From positions 14,131 through 78,130 of the forward strand of contig JANRLW010000014.1 of the NCBI GenBank assembly GCA_033762295.1: a stretch of DNA of 64,000 nucleotides. Direction: 5' to 3'. Numbering within the stretch: position 1 is the first letter of the stretch; the number at the start of each line of letters is the position of its first letter. The position numbers were made by a program. This DNA is from Capsulimonadales bacterium. Lineage in GTDB: Bacteria; Armatimonadota; Armatimonadia; Armatimonadales; Armatimonadaceae. Below are positions 33,301 through 36,300 of the stretch, in pieces.

Positions 33301-36300
33301 GTCCTCCGTGCCGCTGAGCCGTACCCGGGTCCCCAGGAGCGTACGGAGCCGGTCCTCCAGGGCGGCCATATTCGGTTCGAGGCGTTCGGCATTGCGGCGG
33401 GCGGTCGCTCCGTCCGGGTTCAGCGTCGCCTTCTCCTCGCGCATCAGCCGCTCGACATCGCGCACGGTGAGGTTTTTGTCCCGGATCTGACGGAAGATGG
33501 AAAGCTGGCGTTCGCGGAAGGCCGGGTCGCTCGCCTGACGTTCCTCGCCGAGGAGAGTGCGGGCGTGCCCCTCGGTGATCTCGCCCTGCTCCAATCCCCG
33601 TTGGATCGGGTCGGGCAGTTTCAGCAGGCGGAGGGAGTTGGCGACGGCGGATCGGCTCTTTCCCACGCGACGTCCCATCTCCTCCTGAGTCCAGCCGAAG
33701 TCCTCCATCAGTCGCTGGAAGGCGCGCGCGGTTTCCAGCGGGCCGATGTCGGCGCGGATCAGATTTTCGATCAGGGCGAGCGCCAGGGTCTCCTCGTCGG
33801 TGAGTTGCCGGACGACGACCGGCACCTGTTTGAGTCCGACCCGCAGTGCCGCGCGGTAACGACGTTCCCCGGCGACGATCTCATACCCGCCGGCGGGGCG
33901 GGGCCGCACCAGCAGCGGTTGCAGTATGCCGTTCTGACGGACCGATTCGGCCAGTTCGTTTAGCGGTCCCTCGTCGAACCGGGTCCGTGGCTGGCGCGGG
34001 TTGGGATGCAGCGCGGCAATCGGAACCTCCTGCCCCGGTCCCAGGGTGGCGAGCGGATCAGCCGCGTCGCCACCAGCGGGCAATAGATCGGCCAGTCCCC
34101 TTCCCAACACTCGTTTTACGCTCGGCATCGCCAATCAATTCCTTTGCTATCTGTTCGTACGCCTGCGCGCCTTTGGATCGCGGGTCGTAGATGGAGATCG
34201 GCTGCCCGAAACTCGGCGCTTCGGACAGCCGGATGTTTCGTGGCACGACGGTCGGCGACACGGCGTCGCCGAAGTACGATTTCACCTCGTTCATGACCTG
34301 GTTCGCCAGGTTGGTCCGCCCGTCGAAGAGGGTGAGGATGACGCGTCCGACCTCCAGATCCGGGTTCAGCCCCTGCCGAACGCGATCGATGATCGCGAGC
34401 AGCTGCGTGACGCCCTCAAGCGCATAATACTCGCATTGCAGCGGAATCAGCACCTGATGGGCGGCGGTCAGGGTATTGACGGTGATCAATCCCAGCGACG
34501 GCGGCGAGTCGATCAGCACGTAATCGTAGTGGTTTTCCACCTCGGCAATCGCTTTTTTTAATCGATATTCACGCTCGTTGGCAGAAAACAACTCCATTTC
34601 CGCGCCCGCCAGGTTGATGGTCGCCGGAACCAGATCCAGATTCGGGACTTCGGTGGCGATGGCGGCTTCCGGGATCGGCTGTCCGTGCGCGAGGACGGTG
34701 TAGACGTCGTCGGTCAGGTTGCGTCGGTCGATTCCCAGACCGCTGGTGGCGTTTCCCTGGGGATCGGCATCCACGAGCAGCACGCGTCTGCCCTCCTGCG
34801 CGATATACGCCGCCAGGTTGACCGCCGTCGTCGTTTTGCCGACGCCGCCTTTCTGGTTCACGACCGCCCAGACCAGTGCCATGATCCATCGTCCTTCGGG
34901 TGGGAATGAGTGAGAGGGGCTGTCCGATCGCGTTCCGCGCGGGAATACAGGGAATATTCGTTCCTCCGGGGTTCGTCGCCAGCCACGACCCATTCTACCC
35001 GCAAATCGGGCGCGATGGTGTTTCACGTGGAACGGAGGCCGTTTTTTTATCGGCGTCGGAGCGAGCGGGCATCGTGCGAGGGTTTCGGCAGAAACGACGG
35101 GGCCCCGGCGCGCTGTAAGGAAGCGCCGGGGCCAGCTCTTTATTACGACCTGCGCGGTCCCAGACCGCGGGGCATCAGCGAACCCGGTCGGCCATCAGGC
35201 GGCGGACGAGCATCTCGGCAATCTGCTCCCCGCTGACCAGGTACGTGCCCGCTTCGATCCGATTTCGCAGGCTGGCGACAATATCCTCACGTTGATCCGG
35301 TTGCATTTCCACTCTTTCGGCAATCTCCCGCGCCTCTTCCCCGACGGAGGAGATCGATTCCGCCACCCCGGTTCGACGAACGGGCGCGGTCGCGATGTTT
35401 CCGATGGCGATGCCGGTGAGGACGGAGCGCGTCGGCTCCAGCTGCGATATTCGCAGGAATTCGTCTCGTGACAATTGCACTTTTTCTTCCCTTTCCTTAA
35501 AATCCCAATCGACCCGTATTGAACGATCCGACCTGCCGAGGTTCGCAGCCCGGCCGGAGATCGATCCGGCGATCCGGGACTCTCCGCTCGTCTGCGGCAA
35601 TGAAGCGAACGTCCGTCCTGCGGAACCCGACGACTCCGCCTCTTCGCTTCCGTTACCGGCACCATCCGTCCGTCTTCGGGCATTTCGAAGCCGTTACCGG
35701 CTTGAAAGACCCCGCTTTTCCATGAAAGGAACCGTCAGTTTTTTATCGGAAGCAGACCGTTGTCAAATGAAGGGGAATATATTCAACTTATCAGAAAACA
35801 CGTATTAATGTCAAGATATAGACATTAATTAACATAAAACAGTTCCCGAACCCAGCATTTTCGACCCGGAAACTATTTGGTTGACGGCAACCCCTGCGGT
35901 ATGTTATACTTCCCGTAAGAGCGAATTCGTGAAATTTAGTACAAAGTCGGTCGCCCTTGCGGCCCTGGTTCGCTCGACGACTTCTTCGCCAACCGGCGGG
36001 ATTGCGGACGGTAATGCGCGCAGACGCGGTCCATTTTGAGAAAGAGCGGGGCGTGACCGAGGTTTCGGTCCGCCGGGGCATCGCCCATGTGACGGTTTCC
36101 CTTCCGCCGGAAAATGTCGGGGCGGGCCGACTGGAACTGCTTCAGCGGCTGGCCGCCGCCAATATTCCCGTTTTTCTGATCAAACTCCTGCCGAAGGGCC
36201 TTTCCTTCGCGCTGCGAGAAAGTGTCGTCGAGGCCGGAGCCGTTCTGCTCGCCGAAAGCGGACATCCGCATCAACTCCGCCCCGACCTGGCGTTGATCAC

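Follow-up and report, generated by a model that had tools for sequence, protein, structure and literature searches.

SigD of Bacillus subtilis controls autolysins, and the riboswitch of flgB in Clostridioides difficile is a terminator OFF switch acting on structural genes. The aptamer in the latter case belongs to the c-di-GMP-I class (PMC5386303). Retention of the sigma FliA along with FlgM, the anti-sigma that acts on it, without flagella is already known from Legionella oakridgensis, in which both were kept after the whole flagellar regulon was lost and flgM is sigma28-dependent (PMC5655016; primary work Tlapak 2017 as cited there), and FlgM there seems to be degraded with growth phase and temperature (PMC5655016). 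PMC8325347 describes the RsiG switch as the one sigma/anti-sigma complex for which c-di-GMP is known to be a ligand, and WhiG promoters have been located within the pilus cluster of Rubrobacter radiotolerans (PMC8325347). A non-motile member of the Armatimonadota possessing one fliA together with pilB, pilC, pilD, pilQ and pilM has also been described, the available part of that paper reporting no regulatory link (PMC4072686). No title or abstract found in the literature describes a pilus regulon that FlgM controls across a whole phylum and in which the anti-sigma gene carries a riboswitch, most subscription papers lying outside the coverage.

The locus described here belongs to a Capsulimonadales bacterium of the phylum Armatimonadota (GCA_033762295.1, contig JANRLW010000014.1) and lies in a window of 64,000 nucleotides, the whole stretch of DNA that was analysed, which contains a standalone flgM gene whose cognate sigma28 gene is found on another contig (Table 1). 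The best overall explanation, to which a probability of roughly 0.7 is assigned, is that the two genes represent the sigma28-FlgM pair that is ancestral in Armatimonadota and has its genes dispersed over the chromosome, and whose sigma factor would also transcribe a pilus operon. The earlier note on this DNA had claimed an intact FlgM and a FliA/WhiG sigma28, and profile scores bear this out: the FlgM domain (PF04316) reaches 45.9 bits against a cut-off of 25 at residues 42-92, the sigma factor exceeds the TIGR02479 cut-off, and its Pfam regions 2, 3 and 4 are all present. The TIGR03824 score of FlgM, 28.7, falls under the cut-off of 40.75, and its sole PDB match is an FlgM. Its N-terminal helix M(R/K/Q)IS.EE is clade-specific, and the C-terminal RRxxAD motif (R93, R94, A97 and D98 here) is invariant, being kept in 38 of 38 aligned FlgM rows and 120 of 120 database matches. 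The database names of the FlgM homologs are Chthonomonadaceae, Capsulimonadaceae and Armatimonadetes, which fits the phylum Armatimonadota. Sigma factors of the family are 70-89% identical to that of this genome, whose best PDB match is Streptomyces WhiG (234 bits), the best FliA entry scoring 154. A predicted complex of the two proteins was graded weak support: it scored 0.53, with 0.01 for the best control, a contact agreement of at least 65% and a pLDDT of at least 58 for the partner. The mark was attained by 116 of 157 solved pairs, only 18 of them at 0.60 or below, and by 2 of 215 mismatched pairs, both at 0.60 or below; complexes like this one are already among the solved structures. In the prediction, c-di-GMP was included and not scored, with no interface given.

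Table 1. Features of the standalone flgM locus, its sigma factor gene and the pilus operon (positions in the window unless a contig is named)
Feature	Position	Strand	Details
flgM, anti-sigma28	35175..35480	-	101 aa, GTG start, intact
Candidate sigma28 promoter of flgM	35741..35775	-	CCCTTCAT, 16-nt spacer, TCCGATAA
flgM leader	35481..35736	-	about 256 nt, structured; position where relatives carry a c-di-GMP-I riboswitch
Two GC-rich hairpins 3' of the flgM stop	35102..35169	-	without U-tract
parS site	35020..35033	.	separates flgM from parA; the window has six such sites
parA	34058..34882	-	flgM neighbour
parB	33130..34128	-	profile search
FliA/WhiG sigma28	C131:1062-1835		TIGR02479, 240 bits, cut-off 189.6
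pilMNOPQ-pilB, type IV pilus assembly operon (this genome, G000)	C77:24965-32711		PilM_2, PilN, PilO, Secretin and T2SSE+MshEN over Pfam cut-off

The position of flgM directly upstream of parA-parB, also claimed previously, is confirmed: parA comes next after the standalone gene in 12 of 26 family loci as well as in G002 and G004. A single regulated flgM-parA unit was considered and rejected: no sigma28 promoter of parA's own was found (best score -2.3), 14 of the 26 family loci (some of them at the ends of contigs) lack the link, as do many other families, and terminator calling gave nothing between the two genes, the hairpins downstream of flgM not being called intrinsic terminators because the U-tract is absent. 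The adjacency is treated as synteny near the parS cluster, the strict parS pattern being found only on this contig. The candidate promoter of flgM scores 17.8 with the family matrix and only 10.1 with the phylum matrix, and its -35 box is weak; flgM is a candidate target of the sigma factor, and such a site would mean negative autoregulation.

No flagellum-specific genes were found in this genome, in agreement with the earlier note: FlhA was not detected, flagellum-specific proteins were not found by tblastn with translated frames of the G004 flagellar contig, and flagellin was found in none of five non-flagellated genomes tested, this one included. The cluster proteins of G004 match here only F-ATPase-like, SRP-like, ParA/MinD-like and FlgJ-neighbour domain sequences and sigma paralogs, by inferred identity. 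The family tallies given previously also hold, FlgM and FliA/WhiG each occurring in 29 of 32 genomes, with FlhA in 6 of 32. The pair is kept without flagella, and flagellar export cannot switch it here. Across a phylum sample of 201 genomes, FlgM and FliA occur without FlhA in 23, and all three occur together in 113.

The description of this pair as a second, non-flagellar one is not supported for this family. G007 and G031, both with FlhA, own one FlgM and one sigma28, each of the standalone type, and all 12 sister-family genomes possess a single sigma28 and a single FlgM, the standalone type having been checked in three of them (G195, G203 and G133). Ahead of the flagellin genes in both G007 and G031 stands CCTAAAG-N15-YCCYATAAT. 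The pair is indeed distinct from the cluster-linked copies, as had been stated, and two copies each of FlgM and sigma28 are confirmed in G002, G003 and G004. In a sigma tree of 59 rows, 42 standalone sigmas form one clade (100/96), outside which the cluster-linked sigmas, about 40% identical, lie on long branches; in the FlgM tree, built from only 63 columns after removal of 7 near-identical rows, a group of 46 rows has an SH-aLRT of 90. The FlhA tree places G007 and G031 with the sister family (SH-aLRT 95) and G004 elsewhere, and a single group of FlhA from G007, G031 and G004 is rejected (p-AU 4e-44, quick tree). With no other pair found in G007, G031 or the sister family, and with its promoter standing on flagellins, the standalone pair is the native one of the family. 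Taken with the copies in G007 and G031, the FlhA, sigma and FlgM trees argue that it ran the native flagellum and that the cluster of G002-G004 is a separate flagellar system. The cluster pair is accordingly the extra one in the family, and lateral reacquisition of the G002-G004 flagellar system would be the simplest reading. An old phylum-level duplication, as for WhiG1/WhiG2, remains likely since two sigma28/FlgM copies are also carried by the distant families f22, f26, f19 and f6.

It had been stated that no regulon could be derived; however, a promoter matrix from the flgM and flagellin genes of relatives matches the pilMNOPQ-pilB operon of this genome. The training set comprised 21 flgM and 6 flagellin promoters of relatives and no pilM sites; these sites were selected for their similarity to an assumed consensus, and relatives are non-independent in every count. 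The matrix was run on own gene calls (4441 genes), the gene caller having missed parA. A sigma28-type site just before the leader characterizes standalone flgM genes across the phylum, and promoters of the TAAA-N15/16-GCCGATAA type of FliA/WhiG sigma28 are predicted as conserved sites at flgM, flagellin and pilM, the consensus of the predicted sites being CCT(A/C)(A/C)AG-N14/15-(G/T)CCGATAAT. The pilM site of this genome, at C77:32841, ranks second genome-wide (21.9) with the flgM and flagellin matrix, and first at spacers 14-15 (27.3) with a family matrix built without sites of this genome. Within 350 nt, 21 of 23 family pilM loci score at least 13.5, as against 0 of 23 with wrong spacers and 1 of 23 on the opposite strand; the G020 site lies at -356, and the pilM region of G017 is interrupted by an N gap. 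The background is 33 of 4331 genes of this genome and 0 of 28 regions upstream of the sigma gene. The site recurs in other families at 14 of 24 pilM loci (f2 7/9, f22 6/6, f26 1/1; controls 4/24 with wrong spacers and 0/24 on the opposite strand), and it stays below threshold in f11 (0/3), f6 (0/3), f13 and f35. Genome-wide, upstream-intergenic matches at score 15 number 13 for spacer 15 and 7 for spacer 14, compared with 1-4 for each of 14 other spacers; the -10 box alone shows only a weak strand bias in this genome (31 sense vs 19 antisense). A second pilM operon lies on C27; its promoter is sigma70-like, and it lacks a sigma28 site. An exact-pattern search of the g4 genomes and G018 returned mostly coding or repeat matches, mostly unconvincing as promoters.

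By gene content (PilM, PilN, PilO, secretin and PilB), the operon would be a type IVa pilus assembly operon and may build a surface pilus rather than a type II secretion pseudopilus. It scores 214 for TIGR01175 (cut-off 133), its ATPase scores 644.5 for pilB (cut-off 675.65) and 641.5 for gspE (cut-off 630.25), and its secretin falls under the PilQ cut-off; the MshEN domain over its cut-off in the ATPase is a c-di-GMP-binding motif. PilT genes are located elsewhere in the genome, and no major pilin was identified. A further candidate target, an NlpC/P60 wall peptidase, is probably transcribed by the sigma factor, with a site of 28.2 here; only 5 of 24 loci reach at least 12, though the -10 box recurs in 13 of 24. 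Prepilin-like DUF1559 genes show a mild excess in this genome, 5 of 126 scoring at least 12 vs 49 of 4357 genes. The pilT gene, with a site of 16.0 here, was dropped as a conserved target because the site recurs in only 5 of 29 loci, and two diguanylate cyclase candidates (a PAS-GGDEF-EAL gene on C46 and a FIST gene before a GGDEF gene on C64) were rejected as matches in a single genome only.

A c-di-GMP-I riboswitch (RF01051) ahead of flgM in relatives, as previously reported, is found in 11 of 20 loci by Rfam scan; for all standalone loci of the family taken together, the count is 14 of 28. No such element covers the flgM of this genome by Rfam scan, and a model from 18 flgM-linked aptamers, run with filters off, recovered no relic; two c-di-GMP-I aptamers are found elsewhere in the genome, in tandem on C78. 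The riboswitch also leads the standalone flgM in many other families, flagellated or not, and was found on none of four cluster flgM copies. It is ancestral. Of the 23 family genomes without flagella, only 9 have it and 14, including this one, lack it; since it also occurs in flagellated kin, these counts mean that it did not replace export. In family loci the aptamer starts a few bases past the -10 box; GGCA, CGCAAA and the 3' C of its core are invariant in 18 of 18 aligned sequences, and the ligand nucleotides, numbered G20/A47/C92, are the canonical G/A/C. Its 3' strand (GCCG-nYCUC) is complementary to the GAGGC ribosome-binding site of flgM. In the 20 of 22 loci that could be parsed, the mean anti-SD:SD duplex energy was -10.7 kcal/mol for cognate partners, -9.3 +/- 0.4 for permuted partners (0/5000) and -7.0 for ordinary SDs, in a type of test that relatedness inflates. 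AGGC occurs in 14 of 20 riboswitch SD regions vs 12% of 1291 SDs of this genome, and one locus carries a matched change of GCC to GUC with GGC to GAC; in 7 of 20 loci, the pairing is no better than that of at least a quarter of control SDs. A comparison of apo and holo SD accessibility (higher in 17 of 22) was not relied on because it is biased by sequence length. Folding and covariation thus make the element look like a translational ON switch for FlgM.

These observations can be assembled into a circuit in which the sigma factor would transcribe pilMNOPQ-pilB, flgM, probably the NlpC/P60 peptidase, and flagellin in kin retaining it. In riboswitch-bearing kin, the transcript is predicted to start at the aptamer, whose 3' strand would pair with the ribosome-binding site of flgM when no ligand is present; binding of c-di-GMP would free that site, raise FlgM, and lower pili and flagellin. 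When flagella were lost, the pilus operon would still have been a target, which is the proposed reason why sigma and anti-sigma were kept, and the pair is most likely retained for switching on type IV pilus genes. Pilus control as the only reason for retention is opposed by genus g4, in which 8 of 10 genomes keep the pair without a pilM match at 1e-40, and by the phylum sample, in which 6 of the 23 genomes that have FlgM and FliA but not FlhA show no PilM match. One of the eight g4 genomes, G016, has a diverged pilM operon (27% identity) with a weak site of 10.6, and in some genomes PilM occurs without sigma28. In favour of the pilus link, G018, which is 95% complete, lacks FlgM, the sigma factor and a pilM match together, its NlpC/P60 gene is without the site, and no ortholog of the pilB of this genome is among its top matches. 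Because neither export nor riboswitch is present in this genome, its sigma factor is proposed to be freed, most likely, by turnover or dilution of FlgM, by analogy with Legionella oakridgensis.

Other explanations of the pair differ in its origin or in whether it has a function. It might be a second paralog that never served flagella, with the riboswitch taking over from export as the switch, and both the separate standalone sigma clade and the two copies in f22, f26, f19 and f6 would fit an old duplication whose standalone copy served pili. This is unlikely, as the pair is the only one in flagellated G007 and G031 and in the sister family, its promoter is on flagellins, and the distribution of the riboswitch, in flagellated kin and absent from 14 of 23 non-flagellated family genomes, does not suit a substitute for export. 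It appears very unlikely that the pair is a remnant in decay since flagella were recently lost, and that nothing maintains it: family sigmas remain 70-89% identical to that of this genome and are kept in most non-flagellated genera, the FlgM motifs are invariant, and genomes without flagella conserve the pilM promoter, even though the G001 sigma contains an internal TAA, both genes were lost in G018, and the riboswitch and -35 box have gone from several lineages. It is extremely unlikely that flagellar genes are simply missing from a bin that is 94% complete and divided into 132 contigs. The same pattern is seen in 23 family genomes, some of them 97-98% complete, no flagellar gene was matched, and the scattering of flagellar genes observed in G031, which might seem to favour such a gap, makes a total miss unlikely.

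A further alternative, likewise unlikely, is that c-di-GMP acts on the FlgM protein of this clade itself and arms it in an RsiG-like manner, which would explain switching without export or riboswitch. The WhiG residues contacting c-di-GMP (K57/G61/R62) are kept in the sigma factor as K34/G38/R39, the full triad is missing from each of the 17 sigmas that fall outside the standalone clade, the RRxxAD tail of FlgM is invariant, and this genome encodes 15 clear GGDEF domains. However, because the triad is found in 50 of 148 broad sigma28 representatives, some named Bacillota, it is not diagnostic of the WhiG2-RsiG switch and is too common to serve as proof of c-di-GMP binding. RRxxAD could merely pack on the conserved C-terminal tail of the sigma factor, the RsiG motif is absent from FlgM, and RsiG (PF22802) was detected in none of five genomes; the control set contained no RsiG-positive genome over the cut-off. 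A broader, rather unlikely version is that Armatimonadota independently built a WhiG-RsiG circuit (c-di-GMP high, sigma28 and pili off) from FlgM and an ON riboswitch and that, where export and riboswitch were lost, the RRxxAD tail and the K/G/R face of the sigma factor may let c-di-GMP arm FlgM directly. The preferred reading, an ancestral pair with a pilus operon among its predicted targets, offers a concrete reason for flagellar regulators to outlive flagella, namely a second appendage, the type IV pilus, on the same sigma factor. For a phylum that has hardly been studied, it supplies a predicted regulon and a testable promoter, and the 14 genomes without export and without riboswitch provide a clean setting for the question of FlgM removal.

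Compared with Legionella oakridgensis, the likeness lies in FliA and FlgM without flagella and in a sigma28-dependent flgM; the available part of PMC5655016 names no pilus operon or riboswitch, whereas here retention reaches across numerous genera in several families, the predicted pilus target is conserved, and kin have a riboswitch. The canonical FliA/SigD-FlgM checkpoint of Salmonella and Bacillus subtilis (PMC13595943) shares the sigma28 promoter, flgM autoregulation, a flagellin target and probably a wall hydrolase target, but here there is no export apparatus, both genes stand apart from any flagellar cluster, and the constant putative target is a pilus operon. The Clostridioides difficile flgB riboswitch has an aptamer of the same family, RF01051, and the same outcome of less motility with c-di-GMP, although the element here leads an anti-sigma gene and is a predicted translational ON switch. 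In its predicted logic the pair resembles WhiG2-(c-di-GMP)-RsiG of Actinomycetota, above all that of Rubrobacter radiotolerans (PMC8325347; PMC13595943), where a non-cluster sigma28 targets genes for type IV pili and for c-di-GMP enzymes, the anti-sigma factor mediates the effect of c-di-GMP, and sigmas fall into cluster and non-cluster clades; a riboswitch raising an anti-sigma factor would parallel the RsiG switch. The pair is nevertheless not a member of the WhiG-RsiG group because RsiG was not found: its anti-sigma factor is FlgM, c-di-GMP appears to act on anti-sigma synthesis via RNA rather than by arming the protein, and in some kin the same sigma factor would also drive flagellin.

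Six parS-like palindromes occur in the window against 0.24 expected by chance, and matches to the strict parS pattern in the Capsulimonadales genome (G000) are confined to the contig of this window, a distribution suggesting that the contig probably lies close to the replication origin. The flgM gene is transcribed divergently from an ACT-domain/aspartokinase-like pair. Elsewhere in the window, pstS-like and pstB-like genes flank a 694-aa frame holding two ABC membrane domains, apparently a PstC-PstA fusion, and an ATP synthase gene run seems to stop at the alpha subunit gene, with the gamma, beta, and epsilon genes absent after it in that run.

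Features of the window around and beyond flgM
Feature	Window position	Strand	Basis
Stand-alone ACT-domain gene and overlapping aspartokinase-like gene	36014-37959	+	
Sigma70-like promoter of these two genes	35881-35910		predicted
694-aa frame	29091-31175	-	
ATP synthase gene run	38562-43283	+	
parS-like palindromes	9244, 11417, 14913, 16072, 22757, 35020		palindrome pattern

Behind the standalone sigma gene lies a gene for a long TPR protein (C131:1927-3588 in G000, locus L001), an arrangement present in 22 of the 41 loci examined, all 22 within Armatimonadaceae; this protein may act as a partner of the sigma factor or regulate it. In the relative G001, the standalone sigma gene (C4:220318-220989, L050) is interrupted by a single TAA, while FlgM, the riboswitch, and the pilM promoter are intact; either the gene became a pseudogene recently or the TAA is an error of sequencing. 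Two genomes of another family, f8 (G052 and G165; L271-L274), encode a second standalone-type sigma without the lysine of the K/G/R triad; PilM matches in this family numbered 0 of 10.

Across G000, there are 126 prepilin-type genes, the majority DUF1559-like, together with at least four PilB/GspE and at least four PilT-like ATPases, and a second pilM operon is located on contig C27. A subtilase (S8) gene is preceded by two tandem c-di-GMP-I riboswitches (C78:1104-1420, L100), with no sigma28 site ahead of them.

Among relatives, the flgM promoter in genera g2, g4, and g11 reads TG(G/A)TACGAT (L007, L009, L012, L013, L014-L019); this motif resembles an extended -10 sigma70 site, and these promoters may have moved from sigma28 control.
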